From Sphaerodactylus townsendi (lineage: Eukaryota), in contig NC_059425.1 of the NCBI RefSeq assembly GCF_021028975.2, positions 74,152,001 to 74,216,000 on the forward strand: a stretch of DNA of 64,000 bases, written 5' to 3'. This document shows positions 15,201-58,553 of the stretch, one piece after another. Position numbers and translations under genes: made by a program. Each line of letters opens with the position of its first letter. Within the stretch, counting starts at the first letter, position 1. The notes below the pieces were generated by a model that saw only the letters and a program-made list of their open reading frames with translations, did not search any database and was not told the origin of the DNA.

Positions 15201-15253
15201 TATTTTTTATCAGGGTATGAGATAAAAGCAGGAAATACCAAATCGCTATCTGG

Positions 15254-18200
15254 GGCCGTTTCCGCACGGAGGTGGAAACGGCTAGGTTGGCGCATTGCGC
15301 GCCAACCCGACGACGCTGGGACAGTCCACACAGACGGTCCTGGAAACAGCCGGGCAGCCGGCGCCACGGAGCGCCGGCGCCCGGCCAACCCGGCATGTCC
15401 CCGGGCCTCCGGCGCGTTGCCGAGGCCTGGGGATATGCCCCCCTGGCCCTGCGCGCCTGCTCCAGCAGCGCAGGGCAGGGGGGCGTGTCCCCAGGCCTCC
15501 GGCAACGCGCCGGACCAGGGACAAGGTAAGCGCCGGGTGGGGAGGTGTCGTGAAGCACGCCAAGCCGTTAAGCACCGGCAGCGGCTTTTCACGGGCGGTG
15601 TTTCCCCAACAAGAGCGCTTCCAAAGAGGCTGGGAAAACACCGGCTTCGCAGCTTAGCCGGGCAGCGAAGCGGCGGCGCAGCTACGATGCAGCTGTTCGC
15701 GCCTGGCCATGCGAATGCATTACTCCAGAAATCTTTGGTATAACACAGTCAACATTCAGTTCTTCGGTGAAGACATAAGTCCATTTATGCTTAATGCTTA
15801 AAAATTTCCGAAACTTTACCAAGACTGGCCTCGAGAGTCTCAGAGAAGAAACAATTAAAGGCGAACTTAATTTCTTCATGCTTTGGCATCCGCTTACAGC
15901 AAAATCCACCAGGTGAGGATTTAATTCCACCTGAGCTTATTTAAAATTTTTTTTTCCAGTTGAGGTGGTCTCCAGTGTTAGCCAAAGGTATTTACTCATA
16001 TTAACAAATTTGAGAAATTTATCTTCCCCAAAGGCTGGGAAATTAAGAGTATAGTGAGTTCCAATCCACAAAAAGGTGACAAAACCCGATCCAAAGAACT
16101 ATCGACCAGTAAGCTTAAAACATTAAATATGGCACTCAAAAATCTGACGGCAAGATTTTTTTATATCAAAAAAATTAGAAGATTGGGTTTATAGACAACG
16201 CCATCTAATATATCATCCATCATCAAGCAGGTTTTAAAAGAGGACAATCTACCATTGACCACTGTCAAAGCCTTTACAATCTGGCATTTTCAGGAATAGA
16301 AAGCCCTACACCAGAGCCTATATATGTGGCTTTTGTAGATCTGGCTAATGGGGCTTTTTACGATTCAATTGACAGAAACAGACTCTGAAGGTCAAAACTA
16401 GAGAAATTAAAAAAATGCGATCAAAGCGCTTTGTTATTCGCCTTCTTCGTGAATTACATACAGACACCCAGGCTAGGATTAGAGTTGGTATGATGGGTTC
16501 CCTAAACAAACAAGATATCAATTAAACGAGGTGTAAAGAAGCAAGGCTGTGTCCACTAAGCTCCACTACTTTTTTAATCTCTATATAAGCGATATAAGGT
16601 ACAAAGGTTATCCAAGGACCAGAATACATAGCCCCCTCTATTAACCAACTAGAAGAATTTCCATCCTGTTATGTAATGCAGATGGACATGGTCCTAATTT
16701 CTCAAAACCCGCATTGGGATTAAAAAAAGACTGCTCAATAAGCTTAGGTGAATGGTATTGCAAGGAGGAAGCACTCTCCATCAATTACTATCAAGAAACC
16801 AAAGCTCCTATGAGTATTTAGGAAAAAAAAACCGAAAAAAACACTATCCTGGATCGATACACAAAGGAATTCCTATAGGAGCAATGCGAAGCTCATTTAA
16901 ATATTCATAGGGAATTAACTTTTAGTGATACCTTTAAATTGGAGAAAAGTACACTTAGGAACTTTTAAGAATCCTCGGCTATAAAAATAATGAGGGGCAA
17001 TTATGAGATTCCTATTACTCAAAAGGTGGTTTGTCTTGTAGATCCAGCTGTCTATAAAACTGTTAGAAAGTAAGAGTCATCCTCACATACTGTTATATGG
17101 AATAGAAGTTTAGGGGCTGGAATGACCTTATACTCAAGACACTCCAGAATCCATTCCAGAACCTTTTTTAAGGCGGATTTTGACTGATGCTCAAAGGGAA
17201 CACCGGCTGCACTAATGAGGGGCAGAGTTAGGTTTACCATCCAATTGAATCCAACGTGCCCATCTTGCAATCTTGAAGGCCTGGAAAAAAACGACAGCTC
17301 TCAGATAATAAAACCTTTGGTCATCAGTCTTTTACTCTCCTGATGACAAAAAATAATAAACAGCTCTACTTGCTTTTGAAAAATTTGATCTCGGTACACT
17401 ATTCCAGATGATCTATTAAGAGTTTCCAAATGTCATCCAATGCTGAACTCCGAGGACTGGGTGTACAGAGAGAGAGATGCCAAGAATAAACAGACAATTA
17501 ATATGGATTCAGACAAAAAAAGAAACTGCTCCATGGTATAAAACTATTTAAAAAGAGATCATATTAGAGCTACATATCTGGCGAGCCACTACACTAACAA
17601 GAAATCTAAGAATGAAAGCTTATAACTTCTATTAGATTTCAATCAATGCCTTCAGCAGTGCTTAGTGGCAGATACACCTGACGGAAGTACCATTTTCCTC
17701 AAGCGCTTTTGTATCTGTGGAAAACTAAAGAGCCTGAGGATCTCTTCCACTTACATACTCTCCTGTCCTTTATATTCTGAAATAAAGGAAAAGGTTTTTT
17801 TAAGAGCCAATACCTACCTAGGACCCCAGCTTTTGTCCGATGATGAGAAACTGATTTTCTTATTATCGGATATTGATTTCTATGTTTCTTATAAGATGGC
17901 TCTCTTTGCCCTGGCGGCTAGGATACTACGAGCAAAGTATTTAAAGTGCTGTTTGAACTAATGTTGTAAAGTACTGGAGATTAACTTAGACTAGCTGAAG
18001 AAACTGCAAAAACATCTGACGTATTTGATGGGGCATTTTAATTTAGAGATTGAGAACACTAATAATTTATATTTTAATGTAAAACTAAATTATTGTTTTA
18101 ATTTAAATTATTGTTTTAACTAAGTTACTGTTTTAACTGCATGTATTTTTGTATTGTTATAGCCAATGGCTCAAACAATAAATACTTGACTTGACTTGAC

Positions 18201-23419: not shown

Positions 23420-24443
23420 GGGGATAGAGATGATGAAATCGTAGATGATGATGCAGAGGAAGTTCAGAGAACAAACCAAATTCCTGAACAACCCAGACAC
23501 TCATCACAAAGCAATAAAGGAATCCCAGCACCTTGATGATCTTACATGACAAAGTCAACATTGCTGAAAGAGCCAACAAGTTGGAAAGAAGAAATTGAAT
23601 AAATGCCAGCTGTGAAAGACATAGGATGGAGAATGGCAGCCGAAGAGGAAATTGAGAAATAAGAGAAAACTGCACAAGAACCAAATGAGGACTTTAGTAG
23701 AACAACCATCCAACAAGAAAGCAATTGGATGTAAAAGAGAATTTAAATCAAAACAAGATACAAATGGAAAGAGTACAACCACGCTCCAAGCACATCAGAG
23801 TAAGGTATCAGTGCGTGACTTAGTGGAACAGGATAGTGTAGAATTGAAGTACTATCATACTAACCAAGCCTCTACCAAGAGAAAGACTGGAGAAGCTACA
23901 CAGTGGACTTGGACTCATAAGTGCATGCATGCAAGTCTGAGAAGGGGTGTTGGAATATTCAGCCTTGTTTGCATGCAGCAGCAGCAGAAGCAGCAGGGAA
24001 TTCTGGAAAGCTACACGAACATTCTAAAGGTGACAGTTAAAATCTGTTGGTAGTGTTCTGTTCCCTCACTCACTGCCTCACTAGCTAGCTGACTTGACTG
24101 CCTGCCTGCCTGACTAAGTGAAAAGATGTTCTCTGTACTGATGTAAACCAAATGCTATGTAAAAGTGCTCTGACAAAGATATTGTATCGCAACCACACTG
24201 TAACAAACTATGAGCCCTGCATGTAACTATATATTTGTGATACTTTGTTAATGTGTATATACTGTATATGTTTTCTCTCTCAGTAAAGTTCTCCTTATGT
24301 TTATGAACTTCTGAGGTAAACAACTGGTCTTTTGAGAGATAACTATTCTAATTTGACATGCCGCACAATCCACATTTCTGCTCGTTATTCTGCTTGTCAG
24401 GATTATACATTCTAAATATACCTGTTGCCCTTTAAAACCAACA
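23420..24443 (+). mobile_element. Deleted Ty1/Copia element: pol remnant, PPT and 3' LTR (LTR 23948-24443)
   Basis: EPTSW, W.MAAEEEI, LVEQPSNKKAIGCK.EFKSK, PRSKHI.VRY, VRDLVE..VELKY and LTKPLPRERLEKL..LGL (copia RT start fused to the RNase H end); PPT GAGAAGGGG followed by TGTTGG...CCAACA. Confidence 0.85.
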
Positions 24444-25380
24444 TTTTTTCAGACTGCAAAAAGGAAGTGCAAGTGTGTTTTTTCCAGTGGGGATATGGAT
24501 AGGGTAACACTGCTTGTTGTATGCCTGACAATAACTGAATATGTCATATGTCAGCAGTTACAAGTGTCACAAATTTCTTTTCGAGAGTGTTCAGTGATTT
24601 TGCCTTGCTCTTTTTGCCTTGCTCTCATTTGCCTTTGTTTTCACTCCTTTCCCTCTCACTTGTTTCTCAAATTATTCTGTTTCTTATTGCTGTACCCTTT
24701 TCTATTCTTTTCATCATGACTCCTTTTTGAAGGGAAAAGTCGAGAGGGTTAAATGTTACACTGCATATGGCTGTGCCACTTCCATTAATATTTGTTGGCT
24801 TGGCTTTGAGATCTGGCACCAAGATGCTAACAGCAGTGATGATGACTAGTGTGAGAGACTGGCCAGCTACACCTGAGGGCATCACAGGAGTTGTTCCTGT
24901 CTTAACCTGTCTTAACCTGTAAGAAGGCTCAAAGCAACTTACAAACTCCTTCCCTTCCTTTCCCCACAACAGACACCTTATTAGGAAACCCTGTAATGTA
25001 CTTTTTAAAAGCCAGTAAAACTACTTGTATCACTACATTTTGGTGAACCCTAGATGAAATGCACTGGATGAAATTTTTTTGTCAGTCCTCAAACTGCTAA
25101 CAGGACCAAATAAAATTTCAGCCTTAGAAAAAGGAAGTTTTCAAATGTTTCATCCTTTCTCTTTCAGCCTGAAAAGCTCCATTTGGATTTTTTCTTTCTC
25201 TTATGAAAATCCAAGCTGTGATGCCTTATTTTTGTGCCAGTTTGCTTCTTTGCACCAGTTTTCCCTGTAAAATGCATACATGTTTCAATAGTCCTTGTGC
25301 ATTAATAAATCAGTGGTGTACATTATATGACATACCATGTACTAATTAATACTGCATACATCGCATACCAAGAAAACATA

Positions 25381-30690: not shown

Positions 30691-33129
30691 GTTGAGGAAA
30701 TGCAAGGAAGCAACCATTTGTTGCAGAGCCATTTTCTGAAAAGGTGTAGTGAAAGGCCTGTAGCATCAGCAGATAACCAAGGAGGTTTTTCGAGATGTCC
30801 TATTGTGTCAAAGTAGTTCAGTGAGGTATGGTAATCAAGATCATGTCCATAGTTAATGAGGCTTCCAGATTCCATTCACTAGAGTAACTCATTCATTGAT
30901 TTAATCTTGCTAAACAGACCTTTTGCCTGTGGCCTGCTTCTAAGTGGGCACACTGCTACACACACAAAAATATGAGAGGTGGCTTCTGCCAATGTAGTTT
31001 AACAGGAAAATATTCTGAAATAATATATATTGGGGTGTCAAGGGCAAGGCTAACAGAACTCACCAAAGCATCTGGATCCCATGTTATTGACCCAGATTTT
31101 ACCTAAACCCATTGCTTTTATCTCTAAAATTCATAGTCACCCACTTACCCCTGCAAGATTGGTAATATAGCTTCCATCTGTCACAGAAAATATATCAGAA
31201 GAACCCTGCTCCCATTCACCAGTTTACTTGGGTTGGTCAATCTACTGGACAGAGGACAAGCCTGACTGGGCTATAAAGAGAGTCTGTTTGATAGGAAGTT
31301 GAGAAGATTCCAAACTTGTCAACTGTTACAATCTTATGAGCCATCTGACTACTAAATGTGGACTATAAACTTTTTACTTCATTAATGGCACAAAGATTAA
31401 GGAAATGCACAACAAGATTAATTCACAATAATCAGACATATTATGGAAAATATGAAAGTATAATGTAAAATATATGAAGGATAATGTTCGTTTTGTAGTT
31501 AACACAATAAAATTTGTGAAAACAGAAGAACAAAGCAGAATTTATTTTTTAGATGCAGAAAAAGCCTTTGATAATATAGCTTGGTCTTTTTTTTCTGAAG
31601 ATGCTTTGCAGCTCGAAGTTTATGAACTGGATACAAAGTATTTGTAAAAACAACAGGCAAAGATCTTAATAAATGGAGTCTTAATTGATGGATTTCAAAC
31701 TGAGAAAGAAACACATCAAGAATGTCCATTATCTGTACTCTTATTTATTCTTGTGCTATAAGTACTCGCTACTAATATCAGACAAAAATTAAAGGATGAA
31801 AAGTGGATGGAGAAGAGTTTAAAATGAAAGGCTAAGCTGATGATGTGGTACTGACAATTTCAAACCTATACCTATCATTGCAATATGTAATGGAACAAAC
31901 TGGAAAATATGCATCCTTCTTGAGCTATAAAATGAATAGGAAGACTAAAATGATTTTGAATTTTTTAACAAAGCAAGAAGAAGAAATTAGAAACATTACA
32001 GGTTGCAATGTGAGCTTACATCCAGTTAAATATTTGCGAATAAACATGATCAGACAAAATGAAACACTATTTAAAGATAATTATAAAATGACAAGGATAA
32101 TGATACAAGAGGATATTCAAAGACTGTTCAAAATAAAAACTTCTTGGTTAGACAGGATTTCTACCATAAAGTGAATATATCATCAAAGTAAAAAAAAATA
32201 TTACAAATGTTAAGTGTTTCAAATGGCAGAAACAGATAAACAAGTTTATATGGAACAACAAAAAACAAGAAACAGTTTCACACTTTTACAAGATGAAAAA
32301 AACAGAGAACTATCAGTAGCTAATATTACATTATATTATCAAGCAGCTAGTTTCAATTGCAGATTGGATTGAGAACCCAGAAAAGAAAGTAATAAAATTA
32401 GACATGACAGATTTAGAAGAAACATTATGCAATTGATTATGGACAGAACAATCAATGAGCAACCATATCATACAAAATGGAAGTCATGTAATCAGAGACG
32501 GATTGTTAAAAATTTTTGAAGTGACCCAAAAAAGAATTAGTCCTCCAATATCTCCACTACCATCATCTGTAGAGGCTAATTATAAGAAAACTAGCGTTAC
32601 CCGGCCACGCGTTGCTGTGGCTAATTGTTGTGAAATGGAAAAGGAGCAGTACCAGCAAATGAAAGGCAGATGCCAGCAGTACGTGCTCAAGGGAACACAG
32701 AGCCTGATACTATGTGATGTGATTGATATGTGTGACTGCATTCCTAGGACTTCTTTCTGGGTATATGGCAAAAAGGGACATGTCACTGGTTGTAGTCACA
32801 TAGTTCCAATGAAGTGAAGTTTTCGAACAGAGAGCTAGTAAGAGCAGAGCCACAGGTTGTGGCGAAGTGACGCAGGAGTGGAGGTGTGTAAAAGTTATGG
32901 AATGTAAGTGTCGAAGAAGCGAATGATGTGTTTGGGGTGAGGAAGGTGCCGTGGAGGGCTGACGTTGAATGGAGCATTGGTGTTCCTCCGCCAAGAACGT
33001 AGTTAAGGGGGGGTAGGATTCAAACCCCCCCCCCCTGCATGTCTGAAGCTCTGGCCCCTGTCGGAGGGTTTTTTCAGTTTTAAAGCATTTGGGGGGTTTT
33101 GGCCTGCAGGGGGCGCAGTTTTTAGGCTA

Positions 33130-35125
33130 TCGGGACCAAAATGTCAGGCTATTGTCAGGAGACATTCCTGATGATACCAGCCAAGTTTGGCGAAGTCTCG
33201 TTCAGGGGGTCCAAAGTTATGTACTCCCAGAGGGGGTGCCCCATCCCCCATTGTTTCCAATGGGAGCTAATAGTTGATCGGGCTACCCTTTTGAGGTTCC
33301 ATATCTTTGGACACCCTGAATCAAACTTCACTAAACCTAGGTGGTATCCTCAGGATAGTCTCCTTCTGATACTACCCAGGTTTGGTGAAGGTTGGTTCAG
33401 GGGATCCAAAGGGGGTGCACCCTCCCCCATTGTTTCCAATGGGAGCTAATAGTTGATAGGGCTACCCTTTTGAGGTTCCATAACTTTGGACACCCTGAAT
33501 CAAACTTCACTAAACCTAGGTGGTATCATCAGGATAGTCTCATTCTGATACTACCCAGGTTTGGTGAAGGTTGGTTCAGGGGATCCAAAGTTATGGACTC
33601 CCAAAAGGGGTGCCCCATCCCCCATTGTTTCCAATGGGAAGCTGTGGTTGACAGGGCTACCCTTTTCCAGGTTCCATAGCTTTTGGACACTCCTGAATTA
33701 AAACTTCACCCAAGCTAGTGAGTCATCATCAGGATAGTCTCCCTTCTGATACTACCCAGGTTTGGTGAAGGTTGGTTCAGGATCCAAAGAGTTATGGACT
33801 CCCAAGGGGGTGCCCCCCATCCCCCATTGTTTCCAATGGAAGCTAATAGTTGACAGGGCTACCCTTTTCAGGTTCCATAACTTTGGACACCCTGAATCAA
33901 ACTTCACTAAACCTAGGTGTCATCCTCAGGATAGTCTCCTTCTGATACTACCCAGGTTTGGTGAAGGTTGGTTCAGGGGATCCAAAGTTATGGACTCCCA
34001 AAAGGGGTGCCCCATCCCCCATTGTTTCCAATGGAAGCTAATAGTTGACAGGGCTACCCTTTTCAGGTTCCATAACTTTGGACACCCTGAATCAAACTTC
34101 ACTAAACCTAGGTGGTATCATCAGGATAGTCTCCTTCTGATACTACCCAGGTTTGGTGAAGGTTGGTTCAGGGGATCCAAAGTTATGGACTCCCAAAAGG
34201 GGTGCCCCATCCTCCATTGTTTCCAATGGAAGCTAATAGTTGACAGGGCTACCCTTTTGAGGTTCCATAACTTTGGACACCCTGAATCAAACTTCACTAA
34301 ACCTAGGTGGTATCATCAGGATAGTCTCCTTCTGATACTACCCAGGTTTGGTGAAGGTTGGTTCAGAGTTAAAGTTATGGACTCCCAAAAGGGGTGCCCC
34401 ATCCTCCATTGTTTCCAATGGAAGCTAATAGTTGACAGGGCTACCCTTTTGAGGTTCCATAACTTTGGACACCCTGAATCAAATGTCACTAAACCTAGGT
34501 GGTATCATCAGGATAGTCTCCTTCTGAGACTACCCATGTTTGGTGAAGGTTGGTTCAGGGGATCCAAAGGCATGGACTCCCAAAGGGAGTGGGCCATCTT
34601 CCATTGTTTCCAATCGGATGTAATAGAAGATGGGGGTACCGTTTTGAGGTTCTATATCTTTGGACACCCTGAATCAAATGTCACTAAACCTAGGTGGTAT
34701 CATCAGGATAGTCTCCTTCTGATACTACCCAGGTTTGGTGAAGGTTGGTTCAGAGGATCCAAAGTTACAGACTCCCAGAGGCAGTTCCCCATCTTCCAGT
34801 GTCTCCAGTGGGATATAATAGAAGATGGGGGTACCGTTTTGAGGTTTCATATCTTTGGACACCCTGAATCAAACCTCACTAAACCTAAGTGGTATCATCA
34901 GGATAATCTCCTTCTGATACTACCCCGGTTTGGTGAAGGTTGGTTCAGGGGGTCCAAAGTTATGGACTTTTAAAGGGGGTGCCCCATGTTCCATTGTTTC
35001 CAATGGGAGGTAATAGAAGATGGGGGTAAACCTTCGAAGATCCATAACCTTGGATCCCCTGAACCAAACTTCAGTAAACCTGGGCACTATCAGCAGGAGA
35101 GTCTCCTGAAGATACCATGAAAGTG
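33130..35125. repeat. Tandem array of ~10 copies of a 195-bp unit, each with an internal ~120-bp inverted repeat
   Basis: CCATAACTTTGG-like motif recurs at ~33299, 33478, 33674, 33875, 34070, 34265, 34457, 34651, 34846 and 35042; 65-aa periodicity in ORF 33762-34973. Confidence 0.95.
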
Positions 35126-35136
35126 TGGGGATGCAA

Positions 35137-35283
35137 GAGTAATGTGGAGCTTTGGCCCAAGTGGTTTTTACAAACAGGAACCTCAGAATTCAGGTTAAAT
35201 TGGCGTGCTTGCACTGTGCGTGAAAGAAGGGGGATTTGGGTTGCAGTTTGGGCAGTGGGGGTAAAGGTGGGTTGCCATCACTG
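35137..35283 (-). mobile_element. hAT MITE terminal fragment inside the Helitron
   Basis: Reverse complement CAGTGATGGC...TGCCCAAACTGCAACCCAAA...GCCAATTTAACCTGAATTCTGAGGTT aligns to the start of the 58032 MITE. Confidence 0.8.
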
Positions 35284-36673
35284 CTGTAGTGTGTCTCAAT
35301 ATGCCTCCCTGCAAACTGTATGGAGTGTTGGCATCCTCAGGCAAGTTGGTGTTGGTGGGTATAGAAATACCCCAAAGGAAAATGCAGGTTGCACTGCAGT
35401 GCTTCATAATCTCCATTCCTCATAATATGTGTGACATGTTTTTGTGTGAACAAAAGATCTGCAGCAAGTTTGCATAGGAAAGCAGAGTCTGCTAAGAGAG
35501 ATCGGAAAAGGGTGGCCATGTGGCGTGGTGTTCCTTCATGAGGGGAGGGTGGGGTGGTTTTAATGTTCATGGGTAGTCATCTCCATGTAACCCCAGTAAG
35601 GTGGAAGAAATGAAATAGCTGCAGTGAATGAGGACTGGAAAGGGTGGTGCCTTGGAGAGCTTCAGAAATGGTGGGCAGGTGTTGTTGTTTACCTTTTCGA
35701 GAGGATGGGGGGTTATGATGGCGGGCAGCAGAATAGGCAAGGTGGGTTTGCACAGAGACGGGTCGTTGAGGCAGCCGTGATGGGCAGCAGAATTGGCGGG
35801 TCCCCTGGGCGCTGAGGCGCTGTGCTGAGGCGGCGTGGAGGTGCCACAGACTTTATGAGGGAAAGTGGCTGATGAGGCGGATGGCAAAATCCGGAGGAAG
35901 GATGGCTGGTGGAGTAGGGTCGCAGGGTGGGGGTGGGGGTGGGGGGGCAGCGGGTGGCGATGCGGATGGGAGACTCGGGAGCTGGAGGCGGTGTGAGAGG
36001 CTGGTGGCGACGTGAGGCGCAGGAAGGAGAAGGCGAGGGTGCCGAAAGCAAGCTGTCAGAGGCTGCTGGCGTGAGAGCTGTTGTTTGGGCGGGAAGCGAC
36101 CAAGGGGGGAGGGAGCAGCGTGCGAGCTGTGCGTTGCGTATGAGAAGGGGAGGTTCCGTGCATGCCTATCGCAGGAGAGTGCAGCTGATGGCTGATTACG
36201 GCGAAGCATATGAGGAGGTGTTAAGTGGGAAGGGGGAAGATGCTGGCATGTCAGCTGTGTTTTGGGCTGGCAGGGAAGCGAAAGGTGGGAGGAGCCTGCG
36301 CGCCTCGCATTGCTTTTGCAGAGGGGATGAGGGAGAGTTTGGCTGGTGGTTGGGCATGCGCAGTTGGAGGTTTGGGGGGAAATCGCGTCCTATGGGGCAC
36401 AGGGAGGATTATTGTTGGGGGAAAGGAGCTGGAAACCTGGCAGCAGCCATGAGGGACGGTGTCAGGGAAATGCAGGGTGATGTGTGAAGGAATGTGGAAG
36501 GTGACCTGTCAGCAAGAAACGAACGGTTAGCTTTTTATATATATAGATGGTGGGGAACACTGACATTGGCAATATGATAGATGTTCAAGGGGAAACTACG
36601 TCTTGGTCAAAAATGAAGGATGAAGGCAAAAAAATACAATGGCTATTATACTTTCAGTTAGTTTCCAGACTAA

Positions 36674-37144
36674 GGCCATTTCCGCACGGCCATGCTGTGT
36701 GGGTGCGTTGGCATAAATGACGCCGACGCACCCGCCCAGGACTGTTCACATGGACGGTCCCAGTAGGGGTGGGGAAGATGGCACAGCCTGTGCAGAGGCT
36801 GTGCCGTCCCCCGAATGCCTTACCATCCCCGCTGGCCTTCCGGCATGTCGCACAGGCCAGGGGACACACCCCCTGCCCTGCGCGACAGCTCTGGAGTCGC
36901 AGGGCAGGAGGGCGTGTCCCCTGGCCTGTGCAACGTGCCTGAAGGCCGGAGGAGACGGTAAGGCATTCGGGAAAGGGGGTGAAATGGTGCCTTCCAGCAG
37001 CTGCCGTTCACACGGCAGCGGTTGGAAGACACTGCTTCCGAAAAACCTAGCTCAGGGGGTTTGCAGTTAACGCAACAGTTAATAATTAGCGCAATGCAGC
37101 AGTGGCGGCCATGTGAACCCCTCCCCAGGGATGCGGAAAGGGCC
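36674..37144. mobile_element. CpG-rich Harbinger-like MITE
   Basis: GGCCATTTCCGCAC ... TGCGGAAAGGGCC; flanks TAA/AAA; internal homology to 53022-53546 in opposite orientation. Confidence 0.85.
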
Positions 37145-37514
37145 AAAGACAGGAAATTAACAACTCAATCCAAAGGCACGAGTTCATGCCAGTGTGTTTG
37201 GCTACCCCACTGGCGTATTTGGCAAACAAGAATTACAAAGAGAAATGCTGGAAATGTAAAGAAGTAGGTGACTCTTGTTATCATATCTGGTGGATATGTC
37301 AAAAAGTTTAAAAATTCTGGAAAGGAATTCATGCAGATATTCAGAAAATCTTAACATCAAATTAGCAGTGGGTGCTAAGGCTATATTAGGCATATAGCCC
37401 AAAATATTCTGTGGTTTAAACTAGGATCATAGTGGGACCATGTAAACTGTGCATCCTCTATATGGGTTGTACTTCTGCTGAAGAAAAGGATATCCAGAAA
37501 GGATGGTGCTTAAG

Positions 37515-45085: not shown

Positions 45086-45410
45086 TAAGAATAATGTCTC
45101 ACAGGAAAGGACTAAAATAGTGGTAGAGATTTGTTATTTCTTTGTATATCCAGATTTTATCATTCTTGCCATACAGGTCCCCTAAAGTAGATACATTATT
45201 TACCTCACACAGGGTGATGCTTCTTTATATTCTGTCAGCATTTGTTTGGTCCTTATGGTGATATGCTATCACATTAATAAAATAAAAATAAAAGATACCA
45301 AGAACTCTGTCCTTCAGGCACTCAGAAGAATAACAGAGTTGCTGTTGGAGCTTCCATTGGCAGTCTAAAACTGATTGGCAAATCATTGATCACTTTGAAA
45401 AATGATAATA

Positions 45411-45882
45411 GTGAAGGGCAACAGGTATATTTAGAACATATAATCCTGTCAAGCAAAGTAACAAGCAGAAATGTGGATTGTGCTGCACATCAAATTAGAA
45501 CAGTTATCTCTCAAAAGACCATCCGTTTTACCTCAGAAGTTCATAAAACATAAGGAGAACTTTACTTAACTGAGAGAGAAAACATATACATGGATACACA
45601 TTAACAAAGTATCACATATATAGTTACATGCATGGCTCATAGTTTGTTACAGTTTGGTTGTGATACAATATCTTTATCAGAGCACTTTTGCATAGCATTT
45701 GGTTTACAACAGTACAGAGAATATCTTTTCACTTAGGCAGGCAGTTTAGTAAGCAAGGGTGTGAGGGAACAGAACACTATCAATGGTTTTTAACTGTCAC
45801 CTTTAGAATGTTCGTGCAGCTTCCCAGAATTCCCTGCTGCTTCTGCTGCCACTGCATGCAAACAAGGCTGAATATTCCAACA
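45411..45882 (-). mobile_element. Copia LTR copy (same family as 23948-24443)
   Basis: Reverse complement starts TGTTGGAATATTCAGCCTTG and is colinear to ATATACCTGTTGCCCTT. Confidence 0.85.
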
Positions 45883-46531: not shown

Positions 46532-47067
46532 GGCCGTTTCCACACGGGCCATTAACAGCGCCCTGGGGACGGCAAAAACGCTGTCCCCAGGGAGCTGTTC
46601 GCCCGAGGGGTGCAGCTGCTGCGCAGCCGCGCCGCCCTCGTTTGCCTCGGTATTGCTGAAGCTGCTGTTTACAACCTCGCTTCCCCAGCGAGGTTTTCGG
46701 AAAACGGCGGCTTCGAGCCGCTGCCGTGCGAATGGCAGCAGCTCAAAGGCGCCCTCCCTCCCCCTCTCCACTGTTCACCTACCGTGTCTGTGGCCGTCCA
46801 GCATGTCGCCGAGGCCTGGGAACACGCCCCCCTGCCCTGTGATGCCGGAGCAGTCGCGCAGGGCAGGGGGGCATGTCCCCAGGCCTCGGCAATGCGCCAG
46901 ATGGCCACAGACACGGCAGGTCGGCTGGGTGATGGCACTCCGCGGTGCCGTCTTCCCGGCTGTTTCTGGGACCGATGCGATCGCGAAACGGTCCCAGGGG
47001 TTAATTCGGTTAATGGGATACGCCCGACCCAACCCTGACTCGTCAAGCTCATCGCGCGGAAACAGCC
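46532..47067. mobile_element. CpG-rich Harbinger-like MITE
   Basis: GGCCGTTTCCACAC ... GCGGAAACAGCC; flanks ACC/ACG. Confidence 0.85.
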
Positions 47068-52789: not shown

Positions 52790-53765
52790 TGTTGCCTTGT
52801 TTGCATGCAGTGGCAGCAGAAGCAGCAGGGAATTCTGGGAAACTGCACAAACCTTCTAAAGGTGACAGTTAAAATCTGTTGGTAGTGTTCTGTTCCCTCA
52901 CTAGCTCACTAACTTGTTCCCTGACTGAGTGAGTGAAAGAAAGATGTTCTCTGTACTGATGTAAACCAAATGCTATGTAAAAGTGCTCTGACTAAAAGAT
53001 ATTGTATCGCAACCAAACTGAGGCCTTTTCCGCACAGGCCAAAAACAGCGCCCTGGGGACGGCAAAAACGCCGTCCCCAGGGAGCTGTTCGCAAGGGGGG
53101 CACAGCTGCTTCGCAGCCGCGCCACCCTCGCTCCTCCCCAGCGGCGCGAAGCTGCTGTTTCCCAACCTTGCTCCCCGAGCGAGGTTTTTGGGAAACGGCG
53201 GCTTCCAACCGCTGCCGTGCGAACGGCAGCGGCTGGAAGGCACCATCCCTCCCCCCTTTCCCAAACGACCTACCTTCCCTGTGGCCGTCCGGCACGTCGC
53301 CAAGGCCTGGGGACATGCCCCCCTGCCCTGCAACTCTGGAGCGGTCGTGCAGGGCAGGGGTGTGTGTCCCCTGGCCTCGGCGACGCGCCTATCGGTCGCA
53401 GGGAAGGTAGGTCGATCGGGCGATGGTGCAGCGCGGCGCCGTCTTCCCGGTAGTTTCCGGGACTGTTCATGCGGATGGTCCAGCGGGGGTTGTGTCGGCG
53501 TCATGTACGCCGACCCGACCCCTAGCGTGGCTGTGCGGAAACAGCCTGTAACAAACTATGAGCTGTGCATGTAACTTTGTTAATATATATACTATATGTT
53601 TTCTCTCTCAGTTAAGTAAAGTTCTCCTTGTGTTTATGAACTTCTGAGGTAAAACAGCTGGTCTTTTGAGAGATAACTATTCTTTGATGTGCCGCACAAT
53701 CCACATTTCTGCTCATTACTCTGCTTGAAAGGATTATATATACTAAATATACCTGTTGCCCTTCA
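52790..53765 (+). mobile_element. Copia LTR copy interrupted by a MITE
   Basis: Colinear with ~23960-24432 apart from the 53022-53546 insertion. Confidence 0.85.
53022..53546. mobile_element. CpG-rich Harbinger-like MITE
   Basis: GGCCTTTTCCGCAC ... GTGCGGAAACAGCC; flanks TGA/TGT; the empty site in the paralogous LTR (24189-24208) has a single TGT. Confidence 0.9.
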
Positions 53766-54666
53766 TTACCTACCGCCACCACCACTATCACCCCAATTCA
53801 GGCATTCCCTTTCTTTGAGGACATGCCAAGCTCCCGGATCTTTCAGAAAACATTGAAGATTTCTTTATTAAGCATGGCTTCCAATGACTTGGATTAAACT
53901 GGTGGCATGAATTCAGATGACAATTTTAACGAAGTTTTATTGCACATTTGCACATGACTATTATTTTAAAGTACTGACATAACCCACCCTAAGCATTTAG
54001 CTAAGTATATATTGTGTACTGGGATGGGAAGCTGAACACTTCTATTATTCTATGCCAAGGCATGGCCATAGTAATGATCTCTCTTGCTCGGTTAGGCATG
54101 TGGACGAAGTATTAACTATAAACAGTCAGGTATGGACAATTTCAGGGGATAAAAATATCCTGTGGAAAGAATGCATGGGCACAAGTAAAACATTAACAAG
54201 GTTAGAATGTGTATCTTTCACAGGCCGCTCTGCATCCATCCTCTGTCAAGGTACCGGCTTTTTCCATATTACTACCTTTTCCCCCGTCCTCTCCCTTCCT
54301 GGTGATGATTACATAACAGGTTTGGTTCCCTTCCGATTATAAACTCTTTCCATTTGTGAAGAAGGAAGGGTTGTGCCCAGGCAGCATCTTGGCAGATGCC
54401 AAGATCATGTGCTAACTTGCATTGGGAGGGAATCACACAATGCCACTGAGAAGAGGAATTCACATTCTGCTAATTGCTGTACAATCCCACTTAAATACAT
54501 GAGCAATTTTATCCTTAAAGAAAAAGTGTCAATGGGCATAAATTTAGTAGGAAGTATATGCTATTCAGAAGCCTTAATATTACCCTTAGGCTTTATCTAC
54601 TAGCATTTTTATAACACAGTGATAACACTGATGATGTAGTCATTGGCACTGTTGGGTGTTGTTAGA

Positions 54667-58031: not shown

Positions 58032-58553
58032 CAGTGATAGCGAACCTTTTCGAGACTGAGTGCCCAAATTGCAACCCAAAACCCACTTATTTATCGCAAA
58101 GTACCAACACAGCAATTTAACCCGAATACTGAGGTTTCAGTTTTTAAAAAACGGTTTGCTCCAAGGCGTGCATTACTCAGGAGTAAGCTTGGTGGTAGTC
58201 GGTGGCTTTGCTTTGAAGCAACCGTGCAACTCTTCCAACGGGTGAATCACAACCCTAGGAGGGTTTACTCAGAAGCAAGCCCCATTGCCAGCAACCGAGT
58301 TTACTCCCAGGTAAAGGATTGCACTTTAATTCTTTGCATTAAAATCAGTGGGGTTTAACAGCACTTAACAGGGTTACCTACACTGCTTCCCCAAAACTAG
58401 GTCTTAGGTTTAATGCTAATAATCGAGCCCAGCAGCCTAGGCCAGCCTAGATGTGTGTGTGTGGGGGGGGGGGGGGGACTCTATTTGCGCATGCCCACAG
58501 AGGGGGCTCTGAGTGCCACCTCTGGCACCCATGCCATAGGTTCGCCACCACTG
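58032..58553. mobile_element. hAT MITE
   Basis: CAGTGATAGCGAACCT ... AGGTTCGCCACCACTG; perfect TSD AGTTAGGG. Confidence 0.9.

Follow-up and report, generated by a model that had tools for sequence, protein, structure and literature searches.

A palindromic tandem array carried by a non-autonomous Helitron in Sphaerodactylus townsendi and its probable origin from an abundant MITE-like module

Results

We analysed a 64,000-bp stretch of the Sphaerodactylus townsendi genome (contig NC_059425.1), here called the window, in which a decayed LINE-1 ORF2 is split by a Helitron that carries a tandem array of palindromic units. The left part of the ORF2 (31483-32590, plus strand), the target of the Helitron, covers the reverse transcriptase and the region downstream of it; the right part (36548-37389, plus strand) is interrupted from 36673 by another palindromic repeat and ends in the CCHC region. 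Two word-index protein searches with these flanks gave no match and Pfam was uninformative for five flank translations; the flanks were identified by a PDB search and a full HMMER search. The left flank matched human L1 ORF2p at residues 575-713 (E 2.9e-9) and 677-881 (E 5.3e-13), and the CCHC stretch of the right flank matched residues 1121-1158 of the human protein weakly (E 0.005-0.025), as well as P0005, P0035, P0002 and P0139. Among 11 homologs, chosen from 150 for their coverage of the junction region, the left and right flank peptides mapped no more than about 1-6 residues apart in four (P0003, P0008, P0035 and P0101), and shuffling gave p<0.005 for this adjacency in the first three and p=0.04 in P0101. 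The right peptide alone had no significant adjacent match in 7 of the 11, although the alignments of P0001 and P0005 nonetheless crossed the site. Moreover, the LINE-1 reading frame is open across the Helitron site, and an open frame with collinear flanks is expected of an insertion without duplication. On these alignments, both flanks come from one old LINE-1 ORF2 of the vertebrate L1 type and are collinear in it.

The element between the flanks is a non-autonomous canonical Helitron of 3,957 bp on the minus strand (32591-36547), as indicated by its termini, a depth step at its 3′ end, boundary contigs and the collinear flanks. Its 5′ end (36531-36547, minus strand) is preceded by A and starts with TC and a TA-rich tract. 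Its 3′ end (32591-32621, minus strand) carries an 18-nt GC-rich hairpin (32604-32621), which stops 13 nt short of the terminus, and then CTAG (32591-32594), followed by T; in canonical Helitrons the terminal CTRR has its short GC-rich hairpin about 11 nt upstream. The hairpin folds at -5.8 kcal/mol and was the fourth best among the 219 CTRGT sites of the window; its coordinates were taken from a bacterial promoter/terminator scan, which is inapplicable to a vertebrate and was used for the coordinates only. The Helitron was inserted at A^T without target-site duplication, with A and T at the flank ends and LINE-1 flanks that are collinear and in frame. The tested hallmarks of a canonical Helitron were found, namely the 5′ TC with a TA-rich tract, the 3′ hairpin with CTAG, the A^T insertion and dispersed 3′ ends. 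A 5′ TC, a TA-rich tract, a 3′ hairpin followed by CTAG and insertion between A and T are also the defining ends given for Helibat/Helraiser (PMC4778049), and Heli1Xen1 was described with the same canonical ends (PMC12001565).

Contigs of four public runs from three studies were compared with positions 31700-33293, on the 3′ side of the Helitron only; the summed contig depth does not give copy numbers and is read here as orders of magnitude. At the 3′ end of the Helitron, the summed depth in run X1 rose about 200-fold, from 1,481 to 323,261, and the step was present in all four runs (X1, X4, X5 and X6). Two 2-kb contigs (X5 record 22 and X6 record 31) matched from 32589 with an unrelated flank before it, and X5 record 23 matched from 32590. 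The 3′ end of the Helitron is thus shared by dispersed copies with different flanks.

Inside the Helitron, a low-copy segment of its subfamily lies at 32726-33050 (minus strand), where the summed depth in X1 falls to 85-346 at 32780-32995, with 64-85 for window-identical contigs. On the other side of the array, a fragment of another interspersed repeat (35165-35254) is 81% identical over 90 bp to positions 58061-58150 of the window, which is consistent with sequence capture by the Helitron. It is followed by a non-coding segment that is G-rich on the plus strand (35300-36500, GC skew about +0.2) and contains an imperfect direct repeat 177 bp apart (36064-36151 and 36241-36327, 70%). Pfam assigned no family to any of five non-array ORFs tested in the Helitron, nor to any of four tested in the G-rich segment.

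A Pfam search for host exons found 0 families in 300 of 311 ORFs of at least 62 aa outside the element, a search that short exons can escape. The tRNA scan of the window gave 0 genes, and hence no tRNA-derived SINE head was found. A GC-rich, internally palindromic repeat with short inverted ends is present in four copies (15250-15690, 36673-37135, 46532-47050 and 53022-53550), of which the second splits the same LINE-1 ORF2 just past the Helitron. A dispersed repeat of about 500 bp with 83-86% identity occurs at 23948-24448, 45398-45882 and 52794-53020 with 53546-53768, and in the last of these the two parts are separated by the GC-rich palindromic repeat at 53022-53550. At 2687, 47318 and 60103, near-perfect palindromes of about 90 bp stand alone (41, 41 and 29 of 45 positions complementary) and are probably further small MITEs.

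The array itself was found by Tandem Repeats Finder with a period of 195, 8.7 copies and 89% matches (33406-35107). A BLAST search with one unit resolved it into nine full units at 33294-35036, flanked by a partial unit that begins at 33155 and a half unit that extends to about 35117. The full units (plus strand, 179-201 bp each) start at 33294, 33473, 33669, 33870, 34065, 34260, 34452, 34647 and 34842 (u1 to u9), and each holds a hairpin of about 120 nt and another of about 67 nt; unit 1 has a 16-nt deletion and unit 3 is rich in indels. On the left, a terminal unit (u0, 33100-33293, plus strand) consists of an outer arm, a small palindrome, one inner arm and the second hairpin. On the right, a terminal half unit (u10, 35037-35130, plus strand) with an inner arm, a small palindrome and an outer arm mirrors it. 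The two array ends are accordingly mirror-symmetric: the reverse complement of the right end scored 50 against 33121-33200, and the shuffled maximum was 27 in 500. The central units u4-u6 are 96-98% alike and the outer units u7-u9 are 85-90% alike. Five diagnostic positions in the small hairpin separate u7-u9 from u1-u6 as two ordered classes. The array contains only 5 CpG (observed/expected 0.05), in a genome that is itself CpG-poor (0.26). Its monomers are arranged head-to-tail and homogenised from centre to edge as in classical satellite DNA, but the array is only about 2 kb long and bound to its element, whereas classical satellites form long stand-alone arrays.

Two other readings of the repeats were considered and rejected. 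The "linkers" between the large hairpins are homologous to each other and provide no unique spacers, so the array is not a CRISPR array, and the initial annotation was right to call that likeness superficial. On the plus strand, one frame stays open for 407 codons across six units (about 33750-34973), because 195 is a multiple of three (65 codons). Its Pfam hits to DUF7684 (E 3.3e-6) and DUF7665 are sums over the repeats; no single stretch of the frame passed Pfam alone and no credible protein family was found, so we regard the frame as incidental. A 22-nt motif of the unit had 0 matches in metagenome and viral contigs. On the Helitron strand, CTAG stands about 11 nt past the small hairpin in 8 of the 9 units (33340-34693, minus strand). 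It may loosely resemble the Helitron 3′ end, a likeness that could be due to chance; if it were recognised, Helitron copies ending inside the array would be produced.

The array shares its parts with a module that also occurs elsewhere. As reconstructed from the two array ends, the module consists of an outer arm, a small palindrome, an arm, a central hairpin, an inverted arm, a small palindrome and an inverted outer arm. Its left terminal region with the outer arm lies at 32992-33155 (plus strand), with a possible decayed transposon end at 32992, which may resemble Harbinger-type ends. In X1, the summed depth over the module region 33050-33293 reached 0.5-19.6 million. Loose contig ends at 33097 were found in all four runs and represent other upstream contexts for the module, and a second partial copy lies in the window at 650-681, inside a different element. 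That copy belongs to the right part of an element (640-1244) with the same terminal module as the left edge of the array; another element, bounded by inverted ends of its own and with an apparent duplication of 8 bp, is nested there (about 787-1220), and the end of the 640-1244 element resembles the end of an element starting at 39. The u7-u9 form of the small hairpin is nearer than the u1-u6 form to the loose-end consensus of the other module copies. One contig (X5 record 24, 29 differences over 32945-33159) spans the low-copy segment into the module with a short overlap on the low-copy side, which hints that the composite of module and Helitron exists in a diverged copy. Taken together, the module is short, non-coding, dispersed and very high in copy, as MITEs are, and its outer arms mirror each other; its right terminus beyond 35130 and a target duplication are missing in this copy. 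We call it MITE-like: it works like a MITE, but with its right end lost, its membership of a transposon class is putative. No description of the module family was found in the literature listings, a scope outside which Repbase, Dfam and most subscription journals lie, and a repeat this abundant is probably already catalogued in Repbase or Dfam.

We then folded the units. The unit at 34065-34259 folded at -112 kcal/mol on the plus strand (z -13.3) and at -111.7 kcal/mol on the minus strand (z -13.5), and 0 of 200 shuffles folded as well on either strand. The full unit folds alike on both strands, indicating a fold far beyond chance without strand preference. In the array consensus, the two 51-nt arms of the large hairpin are Watson-Crick paired at 44 of 51 positions, which confirms the 195-bp monomers with a hairpin of about 120 bp each in the initial annotation. 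Several arm mismatches had been taken there for G-U pairs in plus-strand RNA; three such pairs are present among the seven non-Watson-Crick positions, but two others are G-U on the minus strand and two are true mismatches, so a plus bias is not seen. Folded by itself, the large hairpin gains some stability on the plus strand (-82.9 versus -77.4 on the minus strand). The linker of about 67-70 nt, previously regarded as a plain spacer of about 75 bp, is a second, more decayed hairpin (-27.2 on the plus strand, z -4.6, and -33.3 on the minus strand, z -5.9, by mononucleotide shuffles). The unit is palindromic over its full length, its halves aligning at 75 of 99 positions, and when the register is shifted by cutting at the other axis, all 195 nt form one rod of -115.9 kcal/mol. 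Along the array, symmetry axes alternate every ~97 bp with 22-36 of 45 positions complementary (background mean 11.6, 99.9th percentile 22). When three units were folded together, they gave a single long rod with one small hairpin instead of three separate hairpins. The array has nine full large hairpins and two degenerate terminal ones, and the rod does not bear out the expectation that a transcript would fold into about ten pre-miRNA-like hairpins.

We next looked for signs of selection on the fold, using nine closely related units, which gives the structure tests low power. Unit 3, whose alignment is uncertain, was left out of the substitution, event and variability tallies and included in the covariation score. 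One compensatory pair was found among 27 arm substitutions in the other eight units; under a null that keeps the substitution types, the probability of at least one is 0.25. Over all nine units, 2 pairs had changed on both sides, compared with 1.3 +/- 0.7 after shuffling (176/500), and 85.9% of cells were paired, compared with 85.8%. The covariation score was 0.051 versus 0.040 in shuffles (11/500; nine units), a weak signal toward structure that unconstrained relatives can also reach. With unit 3 left out, new substitutions made a plus-strand G-U pair four times, a minus-strand G-U pair six times and a plain mismatch eight times. The initial annotation had proposed covariation across genomic monomers as a test of the RNA reading; among the array's own units, compensatory changes are at chance level, and a fold kept by selection, as expected of a structured RNA, was not found. 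Rfam gave 0 matches at gathering score in the window. Of the features of a pre-miRNA or hairpin RNA, the stable hairpin is therefore present and the match to a described RNA family is absent.

The two hairpins differ in how much they vary between units. Derived alleles numbered 8/119 in the large hairpin and 13/71 in the small one for u1, u2 and u4-u6 (p=0.024), and 17/119 and 28/71 for u7-u9 (p=0.001), p values in which the derived alleles are not fully independent. Pairwise differences among u7-u9 were 8-10% in the large hairpin versus 14-25% in the small one. Overall, the large hairpin is 2-4 times less variable between units than the small one.

Finally, we compared the internal junctions with the two ends of the module. 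Upstream of the axis, the junctions agreed with the right end in 17 cases, with the left end in 3 and with neither in 3; downstream of it, they agreed with the left end in 9 cases, with the right end in 1 and with neither in 4 (Fisher p=1.3e-4). This signal largely reflects outer arms that differ from inner arms, and two positions near the axis are truly diagnostic; these two put the switch within about eight bases. Each small palindrome nearly equals its own reverse complement; the pair, although inverted, therefore also forms direct repeats 195 bp apart. As far as these positions can tell, the internal junctions would combine the right end of the module with its left end, a pattern indicative of unequal exchange between the two palindromic ends.

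Discussion

We consider it probable that the array is a tandem expansion of an abundant palindromic MITE-like module, carried as non-coding cargo of a Helitron, and that this history, not selection for an RNA, likely produced its long hairpins as a by-product. The hybrid junctions suggest that unequal exchange or slippage took place between small palindromes 195 bp apart, by which the right arm of one copy would have been fused to the left arm of the next to give the hairpin of about 120 nt. The long hairpin is likely a by-product because this fusion of two arms at the junction would create it. Further unequal exchange may then have enlarged the array and made its centre uniform, as the identity gradient suggests; a gradient from centre to edge is usual for unequal exchange. 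The Helitron would have moved the array as cargo, and the array may have grown either before or after its capture. The initial annotation had kept a passive palindrome inherited from a MITE as its fallback, and an inherited palindrome from a MITE-like element is the best fit, with compensatory changes at chance and no strand bias.

The lower variation of the large hairpin is not predicted by plain neutral decay and counts against the by-product reading. Either conversion tracts centred on the recombining axis or constraint would explain it. The large palindrome could alternatively be a functional DNA element, kept or actively homogenised, that aids the spread of the module among non-autonomous elements, putatively as a cruciform-forming recombination hot spot or as a binding site for a transposase partner. 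Besides the 2-4 times greater uniformity of the large hairpin, this would agree with the folding of each full unit as DNA at -35 to -61 kcal/mol, with the extreme abundance of the module in several contexts, and with the lower variability that DTC84 core repeats are reported to show near a palindrome (PMC3879986). However, all seven arm mismatches are fixed or nearly so in the array and have stayed unrepaired, compensation is at chance level, and such abundance is expected of any successful MITE. We judge a functional element of this kind unlikely.

Slightly less likely still is that the array grew during rolling-circle replication of the Helitron, with structured single-stranded DNA causing template switching. 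The initial annotation had suggested a structured rolling-circle intermediate as a driver of expansion, and in its favour the array does lie inside a Helitron, both strands can fold as DNA, 8 of the 9 units have CTAG shortly past the small hairpin on the Helitron strand, and rolling-circle tandemisation has been described (PMC12628747). The mechanism described there, however, multiplies Helitron 5′ ends, and the unit holds no Helitron terminus. The graded divergence from centre to edge suggests long-term growth, not one replication event, and together with the hybrid junction this leaves expansion by that route unfavoured.

A hairpin-RNA or siRNA source was one of the initial annotation's readings, and we regard a source of miRNA or endo-siRNA kept by selection, in the manner of the MITE-derived hsa-mir-548 family, as highly improbable. 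The fold is very stable, the large hairpin is slightly more stable on the plus strand and more uniform than the small one, one 21-mer is present in 9 of 9 units, and MITE-derived miRNAs have a precedent (PMC1784062). Nevertheless, the full unit folds equally on both strands, compensation is at chance (P(>=1)=0.25), new G-U pairs are 4 on the plus strand versus 6 on the minus strand, and Rfam gave no match, so the sequence lends this reading no support. Microprocessor needs a stem of roughly 35 bp with single-stranded flanks; the 51-bp arms and multi-unit rods found here are unlike such a substrate. Nor did Pfam reveal a host exon in 300 of the 311 ORFs (at least 62 aa) outside the element. Small RNAs from the array are possible, because MITE-derived miRNAs and a piRNA-linked Helitron-borne repeat exist elsewhere, the latter in Drosophila according to the title of Dias 2015 (cited in PMC12628747), yet they would be no proof of function by themselves. 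Any such small RNAs are likely to be ordinary products of transposon silencing, putative as they are.

It is hardly credible that assembly errors account for part of the unit count: unit 3 is unusually rich in indels and the best public run contains only 0.49 of the sampled words, but the units have distinct substitutions and form two ordered classes, and X1 contigs, maybe from the source sample, differ from the window by 0-1 positions in the left flank, at the 3′ junction and in the internal segment.

Returning to the expansion of a MITE-like module, a stronger version can be put forward as a speculation, which we think rather doubtful. The module could be a self-tandemising palindrome, with quasi-palindromic ends acting as a cruciform-driven recombination hot spot that seeds arrays repeatedly and independently and keeps the large hairpin homogenised, and it would be passed among unrelated non-autonomous elements, Helitrons among them. 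If this were true, a very high-copy MITE of this vertebrate lineage could give rise to satellite DNA and long double-stranded RNA by a general path written in its sequence, a simple rule would say which MITEs seed satellites, and the module would be well suited to testing how a vertebrate genome deals with very many long inverted repeats. Independently of this, both ends and the junctions are preserved, so that the passage from one palindromic element to an array is legible in the sequence, and the array offers a clear example of tandem repeats born inside a transposon.

Arrays inside Helitrons and Helentrons, and arrays from palindromic MITEs (Xstir, Angel and miDNA4), are reviewed in PMC12628747 and PMC6947457. 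Closest in architecture, by description and not by sequence, are DINE-TR1 of Drosophila, Cg170/HindIII of the oyster and the Heli2Xen minisatellites, in which the same kind of array with units of about 150-200 bp lies between the ends of a rolling-circle element and the repeat also occurs elsewhere, as here (PMC12628747, PMC12001565). Unlike these, the carrier in S. townsendi belongs by its ends (TC...CTAG) to the canonical Helitron1 type, and the array's unit, palindromic over its full length, was apparently captured from another element. The Xstir arrays from a Xenopus MITE (Hikosaka and Kawahara 2004) and the Angel MITE of zebrafish (Izsvak 1999) likewise have repeats from inside a palindromic MITE, with stem-loop formation implicated and with MITE, array and composite forms coexisting, as here (PMC12628747). 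Loop excision between two neighbouring elements is described for them (PMC12628747), whereas the exchange here would have occurred between the quasi-palindromic ends of one module, and the array is nested in a Helitron, unlike theirs. DTC84 of Donax trunculus shares ordered variants in a short internal array and a junction palindrome in a less variable region; its palindrome is 12 nt long, whereas here the whole unit is palindromic (PMC3879986). By features, the carrier resembles Helibat/Helraiser (PMC4778049) and Heli1Xen1 (PMC12001565), with the same ends, A-T insertion and captured fragments inside, but this copy has no RepHel gene. Made1, the source of hsa-mir-548, is also a MITE palindrome that folds as an RNA hairpin; it is a single hairpin of 80 bp with demonstrated miRNA products, whereas the stems here are longer, arranged in tandem and known from DNA alone (PMC1784062). 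Taken together, the phenomenon itself, a transposon-borne, MITE-derived tandem array, is known, and this example of it is new.
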